Part shown: positions 1,212 to 10,579 of the stretch, in pieces
Layout: each line of letters starts with the position of its first letter
Position numbering within the stretch: position 1 is the first letter of the stretch
NCBI GenBank assembly: GCA_035479715.1
Contig: DATIIK010000003.1
Span: 3,155 to 27,154 of the forward strand
Origin: Candidatus Saccharimonadales bacterium
GTDB taxonomy: Bacteria; Patescibacteriota; Saccharimonadia; Saccharimonadales; UBA4665
Reading direction: 5' to 3'
Length of the DNA stretch: 24,000 bases
The notes under the pieces: generated by a model
The model's database searches: none
Seen by the model: the letters and a program-made list of their open reading frames with translations, nothing else
Told to the model about the DNA's origin: nothing
Position numbers and translations under genes: made by a program

Positions 1212-2216
1212 TTAGAATTTCTCGGCTTTGTACCAATGGGGGGCTTTTTTGAGCCACTCTTCCAAGCCGCGCTCGTCGAGCAGCCCTTGCTGCGCGCCGG
1301 TCTTCTGTACAACACTCATGGAGTTGATGGGTGCCCACTGCAATGCGCTTTCCAGATTATGACCTTTGGCCAGTGCAGCCACGAAAGTGCTAGCGAAGGC
1401 ATCGCCTGCCCCCGTGCGTTCAAACGGCGGCGCTGGGTCCGGGTACAGCGGCATCTTGAGCCGCTGGTTGCCATCGCTGGCGTAGGCGCCGGCAGGACCA
1501 TCGGTAATTACGACGATTTTAGCACCATATGAGTGCAGTGTGTCGATCAGACCATGCACGTTATCGTAGTCGCCGCCTGTTACCAGCACGGCTTCCTCAC
1601 GGTTCAGGACCAGTACTTCGGTACGTGCATACAGCCGCTTCAGCCGTTCCACGCCCGCCGCCATCTGGAAGGTGCCGGGCTGGAAGGCCAGCTTTACATC
1701 AGGATTCTTTTCGAGCCAGTCTGCCATCTGGTCGTGATAGGGCAATGCATGGTCGGAAATGGAACTAAAGTAGATCCACTTTGGAATTTCGTCGGGACGG
1801 AAGTGGGGCCAGTGGTAGTCATAGACTTCGTGCTTGATGAGGATAGTGCGCTCTTCCTTGTACCAGAGCACGTAGTGCGTGTTGCTGAGCTTGTCAGGAT
1901 TGATGTGCACGAAGCGGTGGTCGACCTTTTCGGCATTGAGTTGGTGGATCATGTTACGGCCGGTCTGGTCGCCGCCGACATTCGTCTCAAAGGCCGTATA
2001 TAGGCCCAGACGACTGAAGGATACCGCGGCGTTCGAGGCGTTGCCGACAGCTTCAAGGATCTCGGTGTGGTCGAACGGCAGCTTCGTACCGAATTGCATG
2101 GCCAATACCTTTTGGTCATGGTCATCCGTGTACGTCCACGCCTTGTCGTCGATCAGCTTGATAAATACGTCAGTCACGATATCACCGACTGCCAGTACGT
2201 CTATATGTTTGCCCAT
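1212..2216 (-). CDS. PfkB-family carbohydrate kinase (ribokinase-like)
   Basis: 334-aa ORF with an N-terminal VLAVGDIVTDVF beta-strand/Gly motif and the C-terminal PfkB signature TGAGDAFASTF. Substrate is not assignable from sequence. Confidence 0.85.
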   Translation of the reverse strand: MGKHIDVLAVGDIVTDVFIKLIDDKAWTYTDDHDQKVLAMQFGTKLPFDHTEILEAVGNASNAAVSFSRLGLYTAFETNVGGDQTGRNMIHQLNAEKVDHRFVHINPDKLSNTHYVLWYKEERTILIKHEVYDYHWPHFRPDEIPKWIYFSSISDHALPYHDQMADWLEKNPDVKLAFQPGTFQMAAGVERLKRLYARTEVLVLNREEAVLVTGGDYDNVHGLIDTLHSYGAKIVVITDGPAGAYASDGNQRLKMPLYPDPAPPFERTGAGDAFASTFVAALAKGHNLESALQWAPINSMSVVQKTGAQQGLLDERGLEEWLKKAPHWYKAEKF

Positions 2217-2295
2217 GCCCCACCCTGTTACTGAAGTTAAGTATTGCTTGTGCTTATTGTGTCATAGCTATGCGCTAAAACGCAAGTTTCTTGGC

Positions 2296-2556
2296 CTATT
2301 GTTGTAGGACGTTGATGGTGCGGGCAGCTTGCCGCTGTACGCTTTGCACCACTTTTGCCACTTGTTCCTGCTTGGCTTCTGCGGCATTCAGTACCTTTTC
2401 CGGTGTGTTAGCTGCCGTCTCGGCTGATTTTATAGCCTTGTCCAAACCATTTTCGAGCTTGTCCAGGCCACCCGCCAGCGACTTTTCGAGTGCACCGTTC
2501 TCTACAGCCTTTAGGCCCTTATCCGCCAGCTTTGTCAGGTCGTCAAATAATCCCAT
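2296..2556 (-). CDS. small hypothetical protein (86 aa, helical, Ala/Lys/Glu-rich)
   Basis: The ORF starts 5 nt after the aldolase stop, on the same strand, and fills an otherwise empty gap. The composition is low-complexity, so coding status is only moderately supported. Confidence 0.5.
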   Translation of the reverse strand: MGLFDDLTKLADKGLKAVENGALEKSLAGGLDKLENGLDKAIKSAETAANTPEKVLNAAEAKQEQVAKVVQSVQRQAARTINVLQQ

Positions 2557-2561
2557 AGATG

Positions 2562-3476
2562 CTAGACCACTGCCCTACCAGCCGAATTAAAGTCTTCCAG
2601 CTTGCCCTCGACTACTTTTTGTACGGCTGGTATGACATGCTTGTTGATAAGCTTGGACACCGAGTATTCATCGGGGTTCTCACGCAGGCACTCTTCCAGT
2701 GTAGTACGGTAAGCCACGCGCATGTCGCTATTGATGTTGATCTTGGTAACACCAATTTTTACCGCGCTGACAAAATAATGTCCTGGCGTGCCGCTGCCGC
2801 CGTGCAGACTGATATTGCAGGGCAGTACATCGCGGATACGCTGGAGCAGTTCCAGGTCGAGCTTCTTTGGCACCGGATATTTGCCGTGCAGGTTACCGAC
2901 AGCTGCCGCAAAGGTGTCTATGCCAGTCCGCACATAGAAATCGAGGGCGCTTTCCGGCGTACTAAATGTTTTTTTGATCTCTTCGTAATCAATCTTTTCC
3001 TTGTGTAGGTTGCTACTGCCGCCAAAGTAATGCGGCTCACTCTCTACCAGCGCACCGGTAAACTTGGCATACTCCACAATCTCTTTCGTGGCATCAATAA
3101 TCTCTGCTTCGGTAGCATCCTTTTTAGCCTGAGAAAAGTCGATGTGGATGAACTCAAATCCGGCATCGATGCCCTTTTTGGCATCCTCGACGGATGGTGA
3201 ATGGTCCAGGTTGACGTACATTTCCACCCCGTATTCGTATTTGAAGTTATCAACCATATCGCGCACGTTCTGAATGCCGATATCGCTGACCTCACCGGCG
3301 CTAACCTCTACCAGTACCGGCGCATTCTTGGCCTTGGCAGCGAGGGCGACAGCCTTGAGGGTCGGCTCGTCATCGAGATTGAAAGCGCCGAATGCCCAGT
3401 GCTCGGTACGGGCCTGCTCCATGCGGGCACGTGCTTTAGCACAGTTGGCACGGACTTGTTGTAGTGTAATTGGCAT
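2562..3476 (-). CDS. fba: class II fructose-bisphosphate (ketose-bisphosphate) aldolase
   Basis: 304 aa with NLDHS metal/active-site and SLHGGSG motifs typical of class II FBA/tagatose-bisphosphate aldolases. Confidence 0.9.
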   Translation of the reverse strand: MPITLQQVRANCAKARARMEQARTEHWAFGAFNLDDEPTLKAVALAAKAKNAPVLVEVSAGEVSDIGIQNVRDMVDNFKYEYGVEMYVNLDHSPSVEDAKKGIDAGFEFIHIDFSQAKKDATEAEIIDATKEIVEYAKFTGALVESEPHYFGGSSNLHKEKIDYEEIKKTFSTPESALDFYVRTGIDTFAAAVGNLHGKYPVPKKLDLELLQRIRDVLPCNISLHGGSGTPGHYFVSAVKIGVTKININSDMRVAYRTTLEECLRENPDEYSVSKLINKHVIPAVQKVVEGKLEDFNSAGRAVV

Positions 3477-3500
3477 AATTCCTCTTTCTTCTAAGATGCC

Positions 3501-4478
3501 CTAGCGTTTCTTTTCCAGCACATGATGGGCAGCAAGCCTGATATGTTTGGCATCGAGCCCGAAATGTTCTAACAGTTCGTTCGGCTCACCGCTTTCGCCG
3601 AACCGGTCGCGCATACCGATGCGCAGCATCGGCGCGGGATGTTCTTCGGCCAGCAGCTCTGCGATAGCCCCAGCCAGGCCGCCGGCAATCTGGGCTTCCT
3701 CGGCAGTGACCACGCAGCCGGTCTTACGCACGCTTTTCAGGATGGTCTCGGTATCGAGTGGCTTGATGGTTGGCACATGAATGACTTCGGCATCAACACC
3801 GTCTTTGTACAATTGCTCGGCTGCAACCATAGCCTGATAGGTCATGGTACCTGTAGTAATGATAGTCACGTCGGTACCCGGCATGAACACATACGCCTTG
3901 CCTATTTCGAACGGTGTCTTGTCGGTGGTGATGATAGGCGTCGCTTCGCGGGCCAGACGCAGGTAGTTCGGTCGTCCGTCTCGGGCCATCGCCAGCGTCG
4001 CCTTTTCGGCCTCCACGCTGTCGCCCGGTGCGATCACGACCATGTTCGGCAGCACTCGCATGAGTGCAATGTCTTCAAGCATCTGGTGCGTCGCGCCGTC
4101 AGGGCCTACCGAGATACCTGCATGGCTACCGACGATTTTGACCGGCCGGTCGTTCAGGCAGATGGTAGTACGGATCTGCTCCCAGTTGCGCCCCGGACTG
4201 AATGCCGCGTAGCTGCTGACGAAGGGAATCTTGCCTAAAGCGGCCAAGCCCGCACCGACGGTTACCAGATTCTGTTCGGCCACGCCGATCTCTACGAACC
4301 GATCCGGGAATGCGTCACGGAACAAGCCCATCTGCGTCGAATCGGTCAGGTCTGCGCAGGCAGCTACTACGTTTATATCAATCTCACCAGCTTTCTTAAG
4401 TCCACGTCCAAAGCCTTTGCGGATTGGCTCTCCCGGCAAATCTTTGGCAGTTATATCTACCAGATGTAAATCACTCAT
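3501..4478 (-). CDS. tkt: transketolase, C-terminal (pyrimidine-binding) subunit
   Basis: The track ORF runs to 4574, but MSDLHLVDITAKDLPGEPIRKGFG starts at ATG 4478. That start overlaps the upstream subunit stop (4471-4473) by 8 nt, consistent with translational coupling. The sequence matches the split-transketolase C-terminal half (EIGVAEQNLV, GATHQ). Confidence 0.9.
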   Translation of the reverse strand: MSDLHLVDITAKDLPGEPIRKGFGRGLKKAGEIDINVVAACADLTDSTQMGLFRDAFPDRFVEIGVAEQNLVTVGAGLAALGKIPFVSSYAAFSPGRNWEQIRTTICLNDRPVKIVGSHAGISVGPDGATHQMLEDIALMRVLPNMVVIAPGDSVEAEKATLAMARDGRPNYLRLAREATPIITTDKTPFEIGKAYVFMPGTDVTIITTGTMTYQAMVAAEQLYKDGVDAEVIHVPTIKPLDTETILKSVRKTGCVVTAEEAQIAGGLAGAIAELLAEEHPAPMLRIGMRDRFGESGEPNELLEHFGLDAKHIRLAAHHVLEKKR

Positions 4479-5325
4479 GTTCGCTCCTAATTTTGCCGCC
4501 CAGGGTGCGTAGCTCGTGCAAGGCCTTGACCGCCTGTTCGTGATTTGGCGGTGCACCGTGCCAGTGGAAGTCACCTTCCATAAAATCTACGCCCTTACCT
4601 GGGATAGTGTAGGCAATGATGCAGACCGGTTTTTCGGTGACGGCCTTGGCCATGGCGCAAGCGTCGATGACAGCTTCGATGTCGTTGCCATCGATCTCGA
4701 GCACATGCCAGCCGAAACTTTCCCATTTCTTTTTGAGGTCTTCCAAGGGCATGACACTTTCGGTCGGACCATCAATCTGAATGTTGTTACGGTCGACTAT
4801 GGCAGTGATGGTGTTGAGCCGGTACTTGCCGGCCAGCATGATGCCTTCCCAGACATTGCCCTCGTCCAGCTCACCGTCACCGGTCACCACGTACACGCGG
4901 CGGCTCAGCTGCTTGTCCATGCGTAAGCCCAAGGCGATACCGCAGGCTTGGCTGATACCACAGCCCAGCGGGCCGCTGGTTGTTTCCATGCCTGGGAGAC
5001 GCGTACGCTCCGGATGACCCTGCAGGCGTGAACCCAGACGCCGGAGCGTCATCAGCTCCTTTTTGGGGAAATACCCGGCCTCCGCCATGGCCGCATACCG
5101 TACTGGTACGCAGTGCCCATTGCTAAGCAGTAAGATGTCCCGCTCGTTCCAGTCAGGATTCTTTGGGTCGTGTTTGAGTACATCAAAATACAGCGCCGTA
5201 AAGACATCGGCCAGCCCGAGTGGTCCAGCGCTGTGCCCGCTGCCGGCATGTTCCAGCATGCGGATGATGTCTTCGCGGATGGTATTGGCTTTTTGCTCGA
5301 GTTGTTTCAGTGAATGTGATGCCAT
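4471..5325 (-). CDS. tkt: transketolase, N-terminal (thiamine-diphosphate-binding) subunit
   Basis: 284 aa with GSGHSAGPLG and the TPP-binding GDGELDEGNVWE motif. Adjacent to the C-terminal half. Confidence 0.9.
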   Translation of the reverse strand: MASHSLKQLEQKANTIREDIIRMLEHAGSGHSAGPLGLADVFTALYFDVLKHDPKNPDWNERDILLLSNGHCVPVRYAAMAEAGYFPKKELMTLRRLGSRLQGHPERTRLPGMETTSGPLGCGISQACGIALGLRMDKQLSRRVYVVTGDGELDEGNVWEGIMLAGKYRLNTITAIVDRNNIQIDGPTESVMPLEDLKKKWESFGWHVLEIDGNDIEAVIDACAMAKAVTEKPVCIIAYTIPGKGVDFMEGDFHWHGAPPNHEQAVKALHELRTLGGKIRSEHE

Positions 5326-5342
5326 TTTGTATCTACCGTCTT

Positions 5343-5978
5343 CTATCCCTCTACTATTGCTTTTAGTTTAGCATAAGCGGCAGCCGAATCTTTTGCACCG
5401 TGCAGATAGCCGCCCGCATTCAGCACATCAATACCTCCGAGTGAAAGCAGCCGGGCGTTCTGGTCGTTGACACCCCCGTCCCAACCGAGTTCCAGCCGGG
5501 GCTTGAGGTCACGCAAACGCTGCGCCTTACCAAGTAGGCTCATATCGGCATGACCGCCGAAATGGCCCAGGTTCCCCGAAAATATCAGTACATGGTCAAT
5601 GACATCAAGCGCCGGAGCAATGGCATCTACCGGCGTCTCGGGCAGTAACGCTACACCTACTTCTATGCCGTGGCTGTGCGCCTGCCCGGCGAATTCCATA
5701 AAATCACCCTCGGCTTCGGCGTGCACAATGATAAGCTGCGGCCTGAGTGCGATCAGCGCCGGCAAATGGTCAAACGGGCTTTGGTACATCACATGTAGAT
5801 CCGCCCGTACGCCACCGGGCCACCAGACATCTTCTATTTCCGTCAGCCGATTACGCGTAAATATGCCATCCGACAGATCGATATGCAGGCGATGCGCATA
5901 GCCGAGCGTCTCGTTGATCTGCTTTTCGTAGACCGCTGGCTCATCCGTCGTAACGGTGGGGCAGATTTCTGCGCTCAT
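5343..5978 (-). CDS. rpe: ribulose-phosphate 3-epimerase family protein (divergent)
   Basis: Trimmed to ATG 5978, which forms an ATGA overlap with the upstream membrane-protein stop. HIDLSDGIF resembles the Rpe H-x-D-x-M-D-G-x-F motif, and the length is TIM-barrel-like. The pentose-phosphate neighbours fit. It is divergent, so specificity is uncertain. Confidence 0.65.
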   Translation of the reverse strand: MSAEICPTVTTDEPAVYEKQINETLGYAHRLHIDLSDGIFTRNRLTEIEDVWWPGGVRADLHVMYQSPFDHLPALIALRPQLIIVHAEAEGDFMEFAGQAHSHGIEVGVALLPETPVDAIAPALDVIDHVLIFSGNLGHFGGHADMSLLGKAQRLRDLKPRLELGWDGGVNDQNARLLSLGGIDVLNAGGYLHGAKDSAAAYAKLKAIVEG

Positions 5979-6466
5979 GTGCGCTTCCCCCGCCTGGCGA
6001 TAACCCCTAATGCGATAGTATAGAGAACAACCAGGACCATCATCTCGGTCCACGGTACGCCGAAGGCAGCCCACCAGCTGGTACCGCTACCCGATTGCCA
6101 GTGGAACGTCGTCATGAGTATGCTCGTGACGGTCTGCACGATGCTGAATGCTGCTACGCCCATGGCCGCGATGAATACCGCCCAGAAGAGCCGTGGCAGC
6201 CATCCGAGCACCCGGCCCAGCCCGAAGACCCAGGCAATGATTACCAGCAGCAGCGGATAGCCCCACGTCGATACCTGGAAAGCCCATGTGCCCGCACTCA
6301 TGTAATGGATAAACCGTGCGTACACCCAGAGCAGCTGCGCCACGACCATTACCTGTGCCAACAGCATGATGACCACGAATGCAGCCTGCCATGGGCGGGT
6401 AATAGTTACCAGAACCGGCGTTCCTTTGGCCTGTTTCGCTTGCTTTGTCCGCTTTGCTGCAGCCAT
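5975..6466 (-). CDS. hypothetical integral membrane protein (about 4 TM helices)
   Basis: 163 aa with a Lys-rich N-terminus followed by long hydrophobic, Trp-rich segments. It is packed between rpiB (2-nt gap) and the rpe-like gene (ATGA overlap). Confidence 0.6.
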   Translation of the reverse strand: MAAAKRTKQAKQAKGTPVLVTITRPWQAAFVVIMLLAQVMVVAQLLWVYARFIHYMSAGTWAFQVSTWGYPLLLVIIAWVFGLGRVLGWLPRLFWAVFIAAMGVAAFSIVQTVTSILMTTFHWQSGSGTSWWAAFGVPWTEMMVLVVLYTIALGVIARRGKRT

Positions 6467-6468
6467 TC

Positions 6469-6918
6469 CTAGCCCCCCAACTGGTCTAGTTCATGGATAC
6501 GCCGCTTGAACCTGCTGGCGCCGGCGAACGGCGTCATCAGGAAAGTGTGCAATATGCCGATAGTCTCGTCGAAGCTTAGTGTGCGGGCACTCAGGCACAG
6601 TACGTTAGCATCGTCGTCATTGCGGGCCGAACGGGCTTCTTCCTGGTCGAATGCCAGTGCCGCCCGGATACCCTTGAAGCGGTTCGCAGCCATACACATG
6701 CCCTGTCCGCTACCACATATGAGTACGCCACGTGCATCCGGGTCGCTGTCTTCGCGCAGATGCGCCACTACCCGGCTAGCGAACTGTGGGAAATCATCTT
6801 CTGGCTTCCGTTTCGTATCGCCTTCATCTACGACTTCGTAACCGGAGCGCTGCAAATACTGCATAAGCTCCGCTTTGCGATCAAATCCATTATGGTCCGC
6901 ACCCAAATATATTTTCAT
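6469..6918 (-). CDS. rpiB: ribose-5-phosphate isomerase B
   Basis: 149 aa with MKIYLGADHNG and CGSGQGMCMAANR motifs of the RpiB/LacA/LacB family. Confidence 0.9.
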   Translation of the reverse strand: MKIYLGADHNGFDRKAELMQYLQRSGYEVVDEGDTKRKPEDDFPQFASRVVAHLREDSDPDARGVLICGSGQGMCMAANRFKGIRAALAFDQEEARSARNDDDANVLCLSARTLSFDETIGILHTFLMTPFAGASRFKRRIHELDQLGG

Positions 6919-6989
6919 ATATCCCCTTTACGAATCAGTGTACCATAAGCACATTCGGCGTCGCCAGCCTGTTCTGCCGCAGCCGCTCC

Positions 6990-7028
6990 TAATTAGAAAC
7001 GCCCGCCAACCGGTACGGCTGGCGGGCG
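6990..7028 (-). terminator. rho-independent terminator of gap
   Basis: 13-bp GC-rich stem (7000-7012 / 7016-7028) with a 3-nt loop. The single non-Watson-Crick position is a G-U wobble on the minus-strand RNA but an A-C mismatch on the plus strand. On the minus strand UUUCUAAUU follows. It lies 19 nt after the gap stop. Confidence 0.65.
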
Positions 7029-7046
7029 CCTGCTACATAGGGCGAA

Positions 7047-8063
7047 CTAGCCCTTGTGCAGGAATTTGGCGGCATCGGCCACGACTTCTACGAGACGGTT
7101 GCTGTAACCCCATTCGTTGTCGTACCACACCATCACTTTGACCAAGTTGCCAGCGACGACCTTGGTTAGCAGCAGGTCGACGGTACCGGAGTGGCTGTTA
7201 CCGATGTAGTCAGAACTCACCAGCGGCTCTTCAGATACACCGAGGATACCCTGGTAGAATGGCTCTTTGGCGGCTTTCTTGAAGGCCTCGTTGATTTCCT
7301 CAACCGAGGTATTGCGCTTGAGCAGTGCGGTGACATCGCTCAGTGATACCACCGGGGTGGGAACGCGGATGCTCAGGCCGTCGAACTTACCCTTCAGCTG
7401 AGGCAGCGTAAGGGTCACGGCGATAGCGGCACCGGTGGTCGTTGGGACGATATTCTCAGCGGCATTGCGGCCCTCGCGCAGGTCTTTCTTGGGAGCATCC
7501 TGCAAAGCTTGGCTGGCAGTGTAGCTGTGGACGGTGGTCAGCATGGACTTCTCAACGCCGAATTCACTTTCCAGGATAGCCATAACTGCCCCCAAAGAGT
7601 TAGTAGTACAGCTGGCGTTACTAATGACTTCGGTAGCGCCCTCCAATTTGTCGTCATTGGCACCAAGCACGATGGTGTCAACACCTTCGCTCTTGGTCGG
7701 GCCGCTGATAACGACGCGTTTAGCGCCCGCAGTGATGTGCTTGCTGGCACCGTCTTTGTCGGTAAAGAAGCCCGTGCTCTCAACGACCACATCGATATCC
7801 AGGTCTTTCCAGGGCAGCTCAAGAGGATCTTTTACTGCCAGGACCTTTACTTTGTGACCATCGACGATGATGTTTTCGTCGTCATGGCCGACCTCGTGGT
7901 CGTAGGTGCCATAGTTACTGTCGTGCTTCAGCAAGTATGCCAGCGTTTTGGTATCCGTTAGGTCGTTGATGGCGACGATTTCGAGGTCGTCCCGTGCAAA
8001 TGCGATCTTGAAGGCATTGCGGCCAATGCGGCCAAAGCCATTGATAGCGATGCGTGATTTCAT
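7047..8063 (-). CDS. gap: glyceraldehyde-3-phosphate dehydrogenase
   Basis: 338 aa with INGFGRIGR NAD-binding and SNASCTTNS active-site motifs, and WYDNEWGYS near the C-terminus. Confidence 0.95.
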   Translation of the reverse strand: MKSRIAINGFGRIGRNAFKIAFARDDLEIVAINDLTDTKTLAYLLKHDSNYGTYDHEVGHDDENIIVDGHKVKVLAVKDPLELPWKDLDIDVVVESTGFFTDKDGASKHITAGAKRVVISGPTKSEGVDTIVLGANDDKLEGATEVISNASCTTNSLGAVMAILESEFGVEKSMLTTVHSYTASQALQDAPKKDLREGRNAAENIVPTTTGAAIAVTLTLPQLKGKFDGLSIRVPTPVVSLSDVTALLKRNTSVEEINEAFKKAAKEPFYQGILGVSEEPLVSSDYIGNSHSGTVDLLLTKVVAGNLVKVMVWYDNEWGYSNRLVEVVADAAKFLHKG

Positions 8064-8104
8064 ATTCTCACCCTTGTATCAGATTAATAATGCTTACGGC
8101 TTTA

Positions 8105-8134
8105 ATTGTAGCGCACAGCTGACCCTTGATGCAA
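8105..8134 (-). promoter_or_regulatory. candidate sigma70-type promoter of gap (TTGCAT-18 nt-TACAAT)
   Basis: The minus strand reads TTGCAT (8134-8129), an 18-nt spacer, then TACAAT (8110-8105), about 40 nt upstream of the gap ATG. Sequence-only prediction. Confidence 0.45.
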
Positions 8135-8136
8135 AA

Positions 8137-8166
8137 TTGACCTTTTAAGCATTTTATTGTAAAAAT
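8137..8166 (+). promoter_or_regulatory. candidate divergent promoter of the orphan cassette (TTGACC-18 nt-TGtAAAAAT)
   Basis: TTGACC at 8137-8142 lies back-to-back with the gap -35. An extended -10-like TGTAAAAAT lies at 8158-8166. The -10 is a weak match, so confidence is low. Confidence 0.3.
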
Positions 8167-8205
8167 AATAGAGTCATCTTATGACAACCGAGAGAGGGCA
8201 CCGCT

Positions 8206-8607
8206 ATGAGTGGGGCACAGCAGTCAACAGTTCACACTGCCGAGATTCAAATCTTGGCAATGGAACCAACCGACAGCATCCTCGACCGCCTGGCACGACG
8301 AATATATCTGAGGCAGGTCGACCCCGTACTGCTAGGCCTTGTCGGCACTTCGCGCATCAACATCCGCATCGCCGTCAAATCCGACAGCATGGTGTATGCC
8401 ACTGAAGTCATGGACCACTGCGACGTTCGGGGCCTGCGCATCACGCGGCTCTATCTGAAGATACTGGATTTCTTCCCGGGTGCCTACATCATCGTGGACA
8501 TCGACGAGCAGAACTTCAAACAGCCCGTGCAGCGCTACACCAAGTGCGCCAGCGGTGACCCCGACGAGATCCGTGCGCTCCTGCTTCCGCAGCAGTCTGT
8601 GCAGTAA
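8206..8607 (+). CDS. hypothetical protein A of the orphan cassette (133 aa)
   Basis: Purine-rich SD GAGAGAGGG (8190-8198) lies 7 nt before the ATG at 8206. The overlapping ORFs 8181..8405 (+) and 8332..8727 (-) are Arg/Pro/His-rich and look non-coding. GC3 is about 74% by hand count. An internal Met (MEPTD) is an alternative start. No family recognised. Confidence 0.55.
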   Translation: MSGAQQSTVHTAEIQILAMEPTDSILDRLARRIYLRQVDPVLLGLVGTSRINIRIAVKSDSMVYATEVMDHCDVRGLRITRLYLKILDFFPGAYIIVDIDEQNFKQPVQRYTKCASGDPDEIRALLLPQQSVQ

Positions 8608-8642
8608 AGCCCCCGTAAAGACTACGACCGAAAGGTACAGAG

Positions 8643-9083
8643 ATGGACCCGAAAACCGTACTCTACACGATTCCGCGTACCGGCCACTGCAAGCACAACG
8701 ATCTGCAGACCCTGCTGGAAGCGGCACACGAGCGCAGCGCCTTCGGCTTCGGCGGAAGTCCGCCCCTGGACAGGCTCTACCTCAGCCACGATGACGGTCG
8801 CGGAACCTCTTGGGAGCTGTGCTACCTGGCCACCACGCTGACGCAAGCCGTTGCGCTGTTCCAGTGCACCGGCACTGATCATGACGGCAAGCCCGCTATG
8901 TTCTACGTCGGCGCGATCAAGACGAGCAGCACAACTGATTGGCACCTCACCCAACGGACGGTTATCGGTACCCCCATGCCGGAGTGCGACTACGAAGAGC
9001 TGCCGCTGCTCCCGCAGCTGCATAATCTGCAGTGGCACGGACAGGTGCTCGACCAGCTGGCCGCGAACGCTATCAGCGCCTGA
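8643..9083 (+). CDS. hypothetical protein B of the orphan cassette (146 aa)
   Basis: AAAGG lies 8 nt upstream of the ATG, 35 nt after gene A. The composition is balanced, and GC3 is about 80% by hand count. The antisense ORF 8622..9206 is Arg-rich junk-like. No family recognised. Confidence 0.6.
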   Translation: MDPKTVLYTIPRTGHCKHNDLQTLLEAAHERSAFGFGGSPPLDRLYLSHDDGRGTSWELCYLATTLTQAVALFQCTGTDHDGKPAMFYVGAIKTSSTTDWHLTQRTVIGTPMPECDYEELPLLPQLHNLQWHGQVLDQLAANAISA

Positions 9084-9181
9084 CCACTCTCTCGGTACTA
9101 TCAGTCGACAGAGGTCGTGGGAATGCTTTCGAGTGTCCGTTTCTGGACGCCTCCTTAAGTACATTCTCCCCTCTCTCGACC

Positions 9182-9248
9182 GCACGTTTACGAGTAGGGT
9201 CCTCATATCCAGAATCGTACTGATGAGTCCTAGCAGGACGAAACGTGT
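9182..9248 (+). ncRNA. type III hammerhead self-cleaving ribozyme motif (predicted cleavage after U9188)
   Basis: Read directly: stem III is 9182-9187 GCACGU paired with 9243-9248 ACGUGU. The cleavage triplet is GUU (H17 = U9188). Stem I is 9189-9193 UACGA paired with 9215-9219 UCGUA, with a 21-nt loop. The core CUGAUGA is at 9220-9226. Stem II is GUCCU (9227-9231) / AGGAC (9235-9239) with loop AGC, including the conserved G10.1-C11.1 pair. GAAA follows at 9240-9243. All invariant core positions are present. Confidence 0.85.
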
Positions 9249-9258
9249 TTAAGACAGC

Positions 9259-9289
9259 AAAACACCCCGAGTAAACGGGGTGTTTTATT
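9259..9289. terminator. bidirectional rho-independent terminator (cassette on +, ppa on -)
   Basis: 11-bp stem AAAACACCCCG / CGGGGTGTTTT with a 6-nt loop. A U-run follows on the + strand (UUUUAUU), and the A-run gives a U-run on the minus strand. It lies 16 nt after the ppa stop and 10 nt after the hammerhead. Confidence 0.7.
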
Positions 9290-9304
9290 CTGACAACGGT
9301 TAGC

Positions 9305-9844
9305 TCAAGCTTGCTTCTGGTTGTTCCAGCGCTCAATCGACTCTTTGACGATCGCTTTGGCGGCCTCGATGTCACCCCAGCCTTGCACTACTGTAGTGCC
9401 CGGCTTCTTGAGGTCTTTGTAGTGTGAGAAGTGCTCTGCCATCTTCTGCTTCCAACGCTCACCCATATCATCAAGCGTCTTAATGCTGTCGCCGGTGTTG
9501 CGGTCATCTGCCGGCACTACTACGATCTTGTAGTCTGCCTCGCCGTCATCCACGAAGTTCAGCATACCGATGATGCGGGCCTCAAGCCAGACGCCGGTCG
9601 GAATCGGCGCGTCGCACACAACCAGCGTGTCCAGTTCGTCACCGTCTTCATCAAGTGTCTGCGGAATAAAGCCGTAGTTGACGGGCTTTGCGTAGATACT
9701 CGGCTCGACGCGGTCGATCATGAAGGCGGCACGCCCGCGGTCCCATTCGATCTTCAAAAAGCTGCCCTGGGGAATCTCTACGACCGTGTTCACGGTACCG
9801 TTCTGGTAATCACCAGGTGTCAGGACTTGGTTAAAATCTGCCAC
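9305..9844 (-). CDS. ppa: inorganic pyrophosphatase (family I)
   Basis: VVEIPQGSFLKIEWD and DEDGDELDTLV motifs. The track start (ATG 9916) would overlap the divergent GDPD gene. I prefer GTG at 9844 because a perfect AAGGAG lies 9 nt upstream and the N-terminus then has the usual length. The start choice is an inference. Confidence 0.85.
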   Translation of the reverse strand: MADFNQVLTPGDYQNGTVNTVVEIPQGSFLKIEWDRGRAAFMIDRVEPSIYAKPVNYGFIPQTLDEDGDELDTLVVCDAPIPTGVWLEARIIGMLNFVDDGEADYKIVVVPADDRNTGDSIKTLDDMGERWKQKMAEHFSHYKDLKKPGTTVVQGWGDIEAAKAIVKESIERWNNQKQA

Positions 9845-9898
9845 TATATTGTACTCCTTACTCTGTTTTACTCCCTGATATTGTACACTACTAGTATC

Positions 9899-10579
9899 AT
9901 GAAAATCATCGGCCACCGTGGTGCCAAAGGGCTGGCTCCCGAAAATACCCTGGCCTCATTCAAAAAAGCACTCGAGCACCATGTCGACCAGATAGAATTT
10001 GACCTGCGGGTCACTCGCGACCATATCGTGGTCATCAACCACAACAAAGAGGTCGCCGACCCCGCCGGCACCAAACTACTCATCCGTGCAAGTACGCTAG
10101 AGCAGTTACGCAGGCACAAGCCGGACCTTATGACGTTCCAGGAATTCTTGGACGTCATCGACCACCGTGCGCACCTCCTCGTCGAAATCAAGCCTGGCGA
10201 GCCAACCAAGCAGATCATCGCCATGCTCAAAGAAGACATCGGCCGAGGAAGGCCAGCGGAGAACATATCCGTGGGATCATTTAGCCAGTCTATCCTGCGA
10301 CAGATTCACACGGCACTACCCCGGCTGGAGCTGGTCGTGATCGAGCACTGGTCGGGTATGTACGCCACCTGGCGCGCACGCCGCCTGGGCGCACGCCGTA
10401 TCAATATGCGCTCATGGTGGCTGTGGCGCGGCTTCCTACGGGCCATGCACCGGCGCGGGTACCAGATATCGCCCTACACCATGAATAGTGAACACAACCG
10501 CCGGCGCCTGCAGAAATGGCGACCGTACATCTACGGTGTCATCACCGACTACCCCGACCGCTTTAAGCGTCTGCGATGA
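9899..10579 (+). CDS. glycerophosphodiester phosphodiesterase (GDPD family)
   Basis: MKIIGHRGAKGLAPENTLASF is the canonical GDPD N-terminus (HRG...PENT), followed by EFDLRVTRD. The track ORF from 9431 is an antisense read-through extension across ppa. No clear SD precedes 9899. Confidence 0.85.
   Translation: MKIIGHRGAKGLAPENTLASFKKALEHHVDQIEFDLRVTRDHIVVINHNKEVADPAGTKLLIRASTLEQLRRHKPDLMTFQEFLDVIDHRAHLLVEIKPGEPTKQIIAMLKEDIGRGRPAENISVGSFSQSILRQIHTALPRLELVVIEHWSGMYATWRARRLGARRINMRSWWLWRGFLRAMHRRGYQISPYTMNSEHNRRRLQKWRPYIYGVITDYPDRFKRLR

Follow-up and report, generated by a model that had tools for sequence, protein, structure and literature searches.

A two-gene cassette whose messenger RNA is predicted to end with a hammerhead ribozyme was characterised in a stretch of 24,000 nucleotides (nt) from Candidatus Saccharimonadales bacterium (contig DATIIK010000003.1, positions 3,155 to 27,154); this whole stretch is called the window below, and coordinates refer to it unless another locus is named. 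The cassette sits on the plus strand between gap and ppa, two genes of the minus strand, and is antiparallel to both. It carries a promoter, two open reading frames (ORFs) for orphan proteins and a complete type III hammerhead, and its 3' untranslated region (UTR) holds exact complements to the first ORF's ribosome-binding site (RBS), one of them beside the ribozyme. On balance it appears likely, if not strongly so, that this is an accessory-gene cassette with an mRNA which the hammerhead processes at the 3' end and which limits its own translation by 5'-3' pairing. The anatomy is well established; the mechanism, for which three independent cassettes are the basis, is plausible. What appears new is the setting in a non-phage epibiont, the single 3'-terminal ribozyme on an autonomous ORFan cassette and the recurrent RBS complement beside the ribozyme.

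A first-pass annotation made from the letters alone had already described two plus-strand ORFs of 133 and 146 amino acids (aa), 35 nt apart amid minus-strand genes, and its coordinates match. Its view of an autonomous antiparallel unit of orphan proteins is borne out by the promoter, the Shine-Dalgarno (SD) sequences, the coding signals and the missing family matches, and the structured 3' UTR, hammerhead and bidirectional terminator which it placed downstream of the ORFs were all found. The complementarity between the RBS and the 3' UTR beside the ribozyme, the exchange of ORF B in a sister lineage and the recurrence of the architecture go beyond it. The elements on which the argument turns are the following:
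8187 to 8198, plus strand: RBS region of ORF A, ACCGAGAGAGGG, which would provide the 5' arm in the predicted long-range pairing
8206 to 8607, plus strand: ORF A, a 133-aa acidic soluble ORFan with one homologue (56% identity)
8643 to 9083, plus strand: ORF B, a 146-aa acidic ORFan for which a homologue was found nowhere
9084 to 9096, plus strand: anti-SD tract 1, CCACTCTCTCGGT, directly after the ORF B stop codon and the minimum free energy (MFE) partner of the ORF A RBS, with 12 base pairs (bp) and one bulge
9104 to 9180, plus strand: stable hairpin in the 3' UTR, with its end 8 nt short of the ribozyme cut and anti-SD tract 2 in its 3' arm
9169 to 9178, plus strand: anti-SD tract 2, CCCTCTCTCG, in the 3' arm of the hairpin and 3 nt before hammerhead stem III
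9182 to 9248, plus strand: type III hammerhead with complete core and three helices, predicted to cleave itself at 9188/9189 (GUU/U)

The conserved hammerhead core (C3 U4 G5 A6 N7 G8 A9, G12 A13 A14 and the A15.1-U16.1 pair) is present as CUGAUGA at 9220-9226, GAAA and the U9187-A pair. Stem III consists of GCACGU/ACGUGU, stem I of UACGA/UCGUA with an extension, and stem II of GUCC-UAGCA-GGAC, after which the GAAA follows. The MFE fold reproduces the three-way junction, in which stem III is open and loops close the other two stems; the descriptor gives stems of 5, 5 and 6 bp. When a strict type III descriptor was run on both strands of the window and all Saccharimonadales loci (about 700 kb), complete hammerheads were found in exactly four places, namely the window and three loci termed L001, L032 and L058. 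The stems I-III of L032 and L058 differ in sequence yet pair, and the cleavable N-U-H triplet 5' of stem I is GUU (9186-9188) in the window, GUC in L032 and UUC in L058. L001 keeps the core (N7 is C, which is permitted) with a longer and different extension of stem I and a change from G-U to G-C in stem III. Neither a second ribozyme nor another Rfam family was found in the window or 17 related loci. The 3' UTR folds more stably than its shuffled versions (z = -3.6 in the window and -7.8 in L001), and the consensus fold of the hairpin from both sequences includes one compensatory change from A-U to G-C.

Two stretches of the 3' UTR, CTCTCTCGGT (9087-9096) and CCCTCTCTCG (9169-9178), are perfectly complementary over 10 nt to the RBS region of ORF A, ACCGAGAGAGGG, the pair close to the ribozyme being CGAGAGAGGG/CCCTCTCTCG. 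The same relation holds in L032, where CGACAAGAGG at the RBS is complementary to CCTCTTGTCG, 3 nt before stem III, and in L058, where TTAAGTGAGG is complementary to CCTCACTTAA, which directly abuts stem III. In both loci the two partners differ in sequence from those of the window and still match each other. Between 5' UTRs and pre-ribozyme sequences the cognate matches measure 10, 10 and 10 nt and the non-cognate ones 5-8 nt; shuffling gave P values for the cognate complements of the three cassettes of 0.001 (window), <0.001 and 0.006. If the 16 nt before stem III are compared with the 3 kb upstream, the best complement lies 4-9 nt before the start of the first ORF in 3/3 cassettes. As a background, 692 ordinary genes of the same loci were searched for complements between the last 30 nt ahead of the start codon and the first 150 nt beyond the stop codon; one of at least 10 nt occurred in 5/692, two of these five being cassettes of this kind, and the background rate is about 0.4%. 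Furthermore, the exact complements reach well past the SD core of 4-5 nt and differ from cassette to cassette. These exact-match statistics discriminated cognate from non-cognate pairs, whereas RNAduplex energies did not.

Partition-function folding of whole transcripts pairs the RBS with a 3' UTR tract in 4/4 cases. The predicted partner is tract 1 in the window and L001, with pairing probabilities of 0.98-1.0 (0.98 for the window with 9084-9096); in L032 it is the ribozyme-adjacent tract, with 0.63 for the cleaved and 0.26 for the uncleaved RNA, and in L058 the probability is 0.97. Anti-SD-like sequences hundreds of nt downstream are known to pair with the RBS in vivo, to inhibit initiation and to promote decay, and they are depleted from normal genes (PMC12697547). 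It is therefore unlikely that the repeated anti-SD tracts of the cassettes are neutral.

The four ribozymes belong to cassettes of quite different content. L001, a soil metagenome contig of 2147 bp with the same order of gap, cassette and ppa, is the only relative found with the cassette of the window. L032 comes from a complete chromosome. Its ribozyme, likewise antiparallel and in the ppa/gap junction, stands downstream of an unrelated ORFan of 140 aa (4883-5305), with the promoter TTGAAA-17-TATAAT and a hairpin before the ribozyme. The ribozyme of L058 (3135-3187, minus strand) follows another unrelated ORFan, of 167 aa (3284-3787, minus strand), with a promoter-like region and an upstream hairpin. 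This cassette is found on the other side of ppa, between ppa and an FNR-like gene, where the window has a GDPD gene. No terminator separates its ribozyme from the gene directly downstream, and the ribozyme would therefore separate two co-transcribed messages. Beyond the ribozyme core no similarity exists between the window, L032 and L058 that would point to a shared promoter or UTR platform. The five ribozyme-linked proteins likewise show no detectable similarity to each other, and all are acidic (isoelectric points 4.4-6.1), soluble and 133-167 aa long. The GC content at third codon positions (GC3) of the ribozyme-linked ORFs (A, B, 268-1217 of L001 and the ORFs of L032 and L058) exceeds that of their own flanking housekeeping genes by 0.08-0.2, and this holds in genomes of about 56% and about 43% GC alike, which would fit either a foreign source common to them or a compositional bias that they share.

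That ORF A and ORF B, annotated as the hypothetical proteins VLF59_00665 and VLF59_00670 on contig CAZMOC010000004.1 of a Candidatus Saccharimonadales metagenome-assembled genome, both look coding follows from GC at codon positions and codon log-odds. GC3 amounts to 0.739 for A and 0.789 for B, compared with 0.57-0.72 in 17 neighbouring genes; the hand counts of the first-pass annotation (about 74% and 80%) agree with these values and were rightly read as lying above the neighbours. The codon-usage log-odds in the called frames are 0.30 and 0.315 (housekeeping range 0.22-0.46), and these frames outscore all five other frames, including that of an antisense ORF of 194 aa at 8622-9206. Compared with its homologue in L001, ORF A has a nonsynonymous divergence (dN) of 0.33, a synonymous divergence (dS) of 1.07 and a dN/dS ratio (omega) of 0.31, with the same length and 0 indels across 133 codons. 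It is evidently under purifying selection, and its dN/dS together with its constant length mark it as a real, fast-evolving protein gene inherited in place.

The first-pass annotation had seen no placeable motif in either protein, and database searches came to the same result. Pfam, NCBIfam, PHROGs and PADLOC returned nothing for A or B at E <= 1 beyond noise, so that neither belongs to a toxin, antitoxin or defence family known to these collections, and a PDB sequence search gave no match for either. A word-indexed search of 5.8 billion proteins found the proteins themselves and the one homologue of A with 56% identity, and nothing for B or the L032 ORFan. Phage and plasmid collections searched by tblastn and blastn likewise gave no match, and viral contigs that were scanned yielded nothing. 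With GRAVY values (grand average of hydropathy) <=0 and a maximal 19-residue hydropathy of 1.25, A and B have no transmembrane segment and do not resemble the small hydrophobic toxin peptides (<~60 aa). The AlphaFold2 models, with a predicted local distance difference test (pLDDT) score of 33 for A and 44 for B, were unusable; Foldseek with the B model (pLDDT 44) gave no match at E <= 0.001, and the NTF2-like folds at the top of its noise-level matches were not used as evidence. An exhaustive profile search with A and its homologue against 1.84 billion representatives returned these sequences and P0004 only. P0004 (1149 aa) is a repeat protein built from seven units of about 130 aa that each contain a GRIYLRNISPSLI motif, and the ORF A profile matches it with E 2e-9 via this repeated short motif only. 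As the score comes from seven copies of the RIYLRN-like motif, the match was judged spurious and P0004 is probably unrelated to ORF A.

The insertion of the cassette can be followed in 80 related Saccharimonadales loci fetched through ppa (L007-L086). The genes ppa and gap are adjacent on the same strand in 72 of the 80, with a spacer of 71 nt to 3.4 kb that is essentially empty in 24/72. The closest relative without the cassette is L015 (gap 93% identical); there, the ppa terminator directly abuts the conserved gap 5' UTR and promoter with its TACAAT box, and the insertion is therefore placed at ~8120-9250, which agrees with the coordinates of the first-pass annotation. No terminal direct repeats or target-site duplication were detected at these boundaries. 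Since the cassette-free L015 has a terminator at the homologous position, the terminator belongs primarily to ppa. Judged from this comparison, the cassette is a lineage-specific insertion, probably acquired horizontally. Promoter, ORFs, hairpin and ribozyme arrived with it, the terminator being that of ppa. The survey of ppa-gap junctions suggested by the first-pass annotation thus supports its view: the cassette is absent from L015, and tblastn with A, B and the ORF that replaces B in L001 gave no match in any of the 80 loci. Homology to housekeeping families and conservation of the position across relatives, which it had named as findings that would refute it, were not observed.

The alignment of the window with L001 is a mosaic. 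Identity reaches 92-94% in the 5' end of gap and the region of the divergent promoters; for ORF A it is 66% between the nucleotide sequences and 56% between the proteins; and the body of ORF B (~8608-8994) cannot be aligned, an unrelated ORF of 165 aa being in its place. Conservation resumes, at ~76-85%, in the B tail, the hairpin of the 3' UTR, the hammerhead and the stems of the terminator, and ppa is 85% identical with nearly all differences synonymous (dS 1.42, omega 0.007). With 76% nucleotide identity, dS 0.36 and dN/dS 0.74, the ORF B tail, now outside the coding sequence of L001, is conserved at the nucleotide rather than the protein level. Over these 2 kb dS is very uneven (window 7941-8063 / 9305-9841), with 0.28 for the first 41 gap codons, 1.42 for ppa and 1.07 for ORF A, which suggests recombination or a constraint on synonymous sites near divergent promoters. 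Two 15-mers, CTGCTTCCGCAGCAG (8582-8596) and CTGCTCCCGCAGCTG (9008-9022), are identical at 13/15 positions, lie 12-14 nt outside the ends of the swapped segment and are both kept in L001. They could have been a recombination substrate for the exchange of ORF B, but in 1.2 kb chance alone should produce about one resemblance of this degree.

The signals that frame the ORFs are listed here together with the ORF B tail:
8106 to 8134, minus strand: candidate gap promoter read from the sequence, with -10 TACAAT (reverse complement of 8106-8111), -35 TTGCAT (reverse complement of 8129-8134) and a 17-nt spacer
8137 to 8166, plus strand: cassette promoter reported by the promoter scan, with -35 TTGACC, an 18-nt spacer with TG and -10 AAAAAT ending at 8166
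8630 to 8635, plus strand: SD-like GAAAGG of ORF B, 7 nt before the ATG, read from the sequence
8995 to 9083, plus strand: ORF B tail, the last ~29 codons, kept in L001 as non-coding sequence downstream of the replacement ORF
9259 to 9286, both strands: bidirectional terminator AAAACACCCCG/CGGGGTGTTTT, an 11-bp stem with an A-run and a T-run at its flanks, common to the convergent ppa

The promoter that the first-pass annotation had proposed at TTGACC (8137) was thus recovered by a consensus scan, which found two promoter-like sites in the region (0.6 expected). Transcription is expected to start near 8173, and the promoter region is ~94% identical in L001. The putative gap promoter would stand back-to-back with it; the scan made no call at this site, which is read from the sequence, and its TACAAT box and the gap 5' UTR are kept in L015. 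On the minus strand no promoter-like sites were reported by the scan in 7900-9500, and no search was aimed at an antisense antitoxin RNA. An SD-like purine-rich tract, GAGAGAGGG, ends 7 nt before the ATG of ORF A. The 5' UTR also contains an out-of-frame upstream ATG at 8181-8183, inside a conserved motif, CTTATGACAACCGAGAGA, and kept in L001; a similar motif, CTTATGTCGACAAGAGG, occurs in L032. The terminator at 9259-9286 was missed by a simple terminator scan.

Taken as a mechanism, these elements would act as follows. A sigma-70-type promoter would drive a bicistronic mRNA for the two ORFan proteins, of which A would be retained under purifying selection and B would be exchangeable. The hammerhead would cut after U9188, 8 nt past the stable hairpin, and so detach the ribozyme body and the shared terminator, leaving a mature mRNA that ends with the hairpin, CCGCACGUU and a cyclic phosphate. 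The anti-SD tracts would bend back onto the 5' UTR, which is only ~14 nt away from where the 5' end is expected, so that the mRNA is looped and the RBS occluded. ORF A, and probably the whole bicistron, would be translated mainly co-transcriptionally, whereas the mature mRNA would be silent or destabilised.

Several points weigh against this proposal. Self-cleavage and pairing in vivo, as well as the repressive direction of the pairing, are predictions. The window hammerhead scores only 21.2 bits (E 0.17) with the Rfam model RF00008, far below the gathering score of 48.5; the low score and a misalignment are attributed to the length of stem I (31 nt), and for this reason the assignment draws on the core, which is canonical, on the presence of all three helices and on the comparison between loci. 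The L032 hammerhead reaches 45.8 bits (E 2.3e-7), and those of L058 and L001 are not reported at E <= 0.01. A GUU triplet is a slower hammerhead substrate than GUC. Moreover, L001 keeps only 7 bp at tract 1 (core CUCUCGG) and 6+3 bp at tract 2, and as these changes are not compensatory, selection for the full 10-12 bp is not evident within the lineage of the window and L001. For the window, the predicted fold places tract 2 in the local hairpin and pairs tract 1 with the RBS, so that the ribozyme-adjacent tract is not necessarily active there. The predicted pairing barely changes upon cleavage in the window and L058, which leaves a functional link between ribozyme and pairing unproven. Finally, the rule comes from three independent cassettes only, and 14 phage type III hammerheads do not follow it. 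The one candidate, L113, lies inside a long ORF and was rejected.

Some of these points would also be expected if the ribozyme were a generic processing or insulating element, as has been proposed for prophage operons, and if its neighbourhood to an anti-SD tract were meaningless because pyrimidine tracts merely build the hairpins. In favour of this, the ribozyme-adjacent tract lies partly in a local hairpin in the window and L032, cleavage hardly alters the predicted pairing in 2/4 transcripts, the phage hammerheads lack the rule and the complementarity of L001 is eroded. It is nevertheless regarded as distinctly unlikely, as exact, cassette-specific 10-nt matches beyond the SD core stand 0-3 nt from stem III in 3/3 cassettes at a background of ~0.4%, and anti-SD-like sequences are normally selected against (PMC12697547). 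The 10-bp inverted repeats (8189-8198 / 9169-9178) might also be seen as the terminal repeats of a DNA transposable element, with ORF A as a decayed transposase. They do bracket the ORFs, the unit is an insertion relative to L015, and residues 55-93 of ORF A (8368-8484) resemble the region of the second catalytic Asp of an IS1380-type DDE_Tnp_1_4 transposase (862-987 of L006, a marine metagenome contig), sharing SDSxxYxxEVMDHCD with an hhalign probability of 85%. However, the repeats lie ~70 nt inside both insertion boundaries, unlike the terminal repeats of IS1380, and because they vary between cassettes and always overlap the RBS, their pattern fits RNA pairing and not recognition by a transposase. 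The resemblance is limited to one local stretch of 42 aa, found after pre-selection on a 7-mer; ORF A has no Pfam match, nothing else in the cassette is colinear, and the motif is degenerate in the L001 homologue, where the putative catalytic SDS is absent. A transposase origin of ORF A was rejected on these grounds. ORF A has, in addition, a constant length under purifying selection, and no transposase or integrase is among the genes called within 20 kb. A transposon relic is largely refuted and must be called highly improbable.

A different question is what the proteins do, and here an answer can coexist with the self-limited, ribozyme-processed cassette. A and B may form a two-protein conflict module (toxin-antitoxin, toxin-immunity or defence/anti-defence) whose RNA features keep a harmful product low, a proposal that is rather doubtful. 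The unit is a compact bicistron of small proteins, its ORFs are orphans with fast turnover, and ORF B gave way to an unrelated ORF and left a displaced 3' remnant behind, as in polymorphic toxin-immunity loci. In being small, acidic and soluble, the ribozyme-linked products resemble many immunity and anti-defence proteins; in Agrobacterium, the anti-restriction gene ardA has hammerheads at its flanks (PMC3088659); and SD sequestration through 5'-3' pairing characterises toxin mRNAs such as aapA1 (PMC5416894). On the other hand, no helix-turn-helix or ribbon-helix-helix antitoxin signature was found, PADLOC, Pfam, NCBIfam and PHROGs returned nothing and the structure models are unusable; the cassettes of L032 and L058 carry a single ORF, so that a protein pair is not obligatory to the design. 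That ORF A and ORF B point towards a conflict-type role, be it as toxin/immunity, anti-defence or host-interaction factors, is a guess suggested by the tight self-limitation, the foreign composition, the rapid turnover and ORFan status, the swap of B with its displaced remnant and the small acidic products. The toxin-antitoxin, defence and regulator ideas of the first-pass annotation are guesses as well. Going further, the promoter, RBS, ORFan(s), anti-SD tract and type III hammerhead could define a portable and hitherto undescribed class of Saccharimonadales cassettes in which pairing and ribozyme jointly form a translation-sensing switch over fast-evolving conflict genes in ultra-small epibiont genomes. 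The SD:anti-SD helix would then stack on stem III and couple cleavage, mRNA closure and translation status. Coaxial stacking and such a coupling are conceivable because the helix would sit 0-3 nt from stem III; the extension as a whole is tentative and somewhat unlikely.

Among known systems, the prophage hammerheads come closest on the side of the ribozyme. They flank individual genes or small groups of genes that are variable and often unknown (Perreault et al. 2011; PMC3088659). Because hammerhead-flanked variable genes, including those beside ardA, were thus already known in prophages, the first-pass annotation put it too strongly in calling a small bicistronic unit with a self-cleaving ribozyme "not a described arrangement". 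Shared with them are a canonical hammerhead beside small variable genes, the proposed processing into gene-length mRNAs and the association with accessory or anti-restriction functions (ardA) (PMC3088659). In contrast to these blocks, the cassette has a single 3' ribozyme on a promoter-driven unit, and the gene calls over 20 kb and the phage similarity searches revealed no prophage, integrase or phage homologue. An RBS complement stands beside the ribozyme here and in none of the 14 phage type III hammerheads examined.

On the side of the pairing, the icaR mRNA of Staphylococcus aureus is the nearest relative. Base pairing between its 3' UTR and its SD blocks initiation, represses and creates a substrate for RNase III (PMC3868564), and a related 5'/3' UTR interaction is that of hbs in Bacillus subtilis (PMC5737220). 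In both icaR and the cassette a pyrimidine-rich 3' UTR tract (UCCCCUG in icaR) is complementary to the own SD ~1 kb away, and the expected outcome is a block of translation and altered decay. However, the cassette has two perfect 10-nt tracts, one of them adjoining a self-cleaving ribozyme that would set the 3' end, and the design recurs on unrelated ORFans, whereas icaR is one conserved regulator gene. A long-distance 5'-3' interaction and 3' processing are also combined in the type I toxin mRNA of hok/sok. In the aapA1/IsoA1 system, the toxin mRNA has SD sequestration plus a 3' processing step (PMC5416894); the cassette is similar in that 5'-3' pairing would hide the SD, 3' processing would be part of the expression logic and the locus is small, accessory and fast-evolving. 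It differs in its soluble acidic proteins of 133-167 aa in place of hydrophobic peptides of <60 aa, and no antisense antitoxin RNA is evident, although no search was aimed at one. Furthermore, processing by the ribozyme would leave the anti-SD tracts on the mRNA and not remove them. In synthetic hammerhead RBS switches the RBS is hidden locally in an extended stem I of the 5' UTR and freed by cleavage, and ribozyme insulators are used in bacteria as well. These switches likewise join a hammerhead and RBS sequestration in one transcript, but the cassette has its ribozyme at the 3' end, and its predicted pairing extends across the entire mRNA. A full-text literature search, which is weak evidence, found no paper naming both hammerhead ribozymes and Saccharibacteria and no natural pairing of a hammerhead with an anti-SD tract.

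The roles of bacterial hammerheads are largely unclear, and natural ribozymes tied to translation control are rare. Here, one mRNA of ~1 kb combines a ribozyme that would set its 3' end, a protective hairpin and exact RBS complements. If the proposed self-limitation is true, a function would be assigned to a bacterial hammerhead, and the closed-loop regulation by 5' and 3' UTRs known from icaR, type I toxin mRNAs and long-range anti-SD effects would extend to a ribozyme-processed format. The module would also mark rapidly turning-over accessory genes in reduced epibiont genomes as candidate host or phage interaction factors, and it could serve synthetic biology as a natural part.

The surroundings of the cassette are those of central metabolism in an epibiont genome of roughly 1 Mb. 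With the exception of A and B, all long ORFs and real genes in 1212-9916 lie on the minus strand, among them genes for a PfkB kinase, an aldolase, a transketolase, Rpe, RpiB, GAPDH (gap) and the pyrophosphatase (ppa), and the genes called across 20 kb belong to glycolysis, the pentose-phosphate pathway, redox functions and tRNA synthetases. The ppa/gap junction (window 8064-9304) is a variable spot across the Saccharimonadales. In L010, L043, L057 and L070 it consists of spacers of 500-625 nt without an ORF of at least 60 aa, a hammerhead or an Rfam family. Occupied spacers contain NUDIX hydrolases (a cluster of 29 ORFs, sometimes in 2-3 tandem copies), RelA/SpoT proteins (12) and inositol monophosphatases (5), besides an HD protein and singleton ORFans on either strand.

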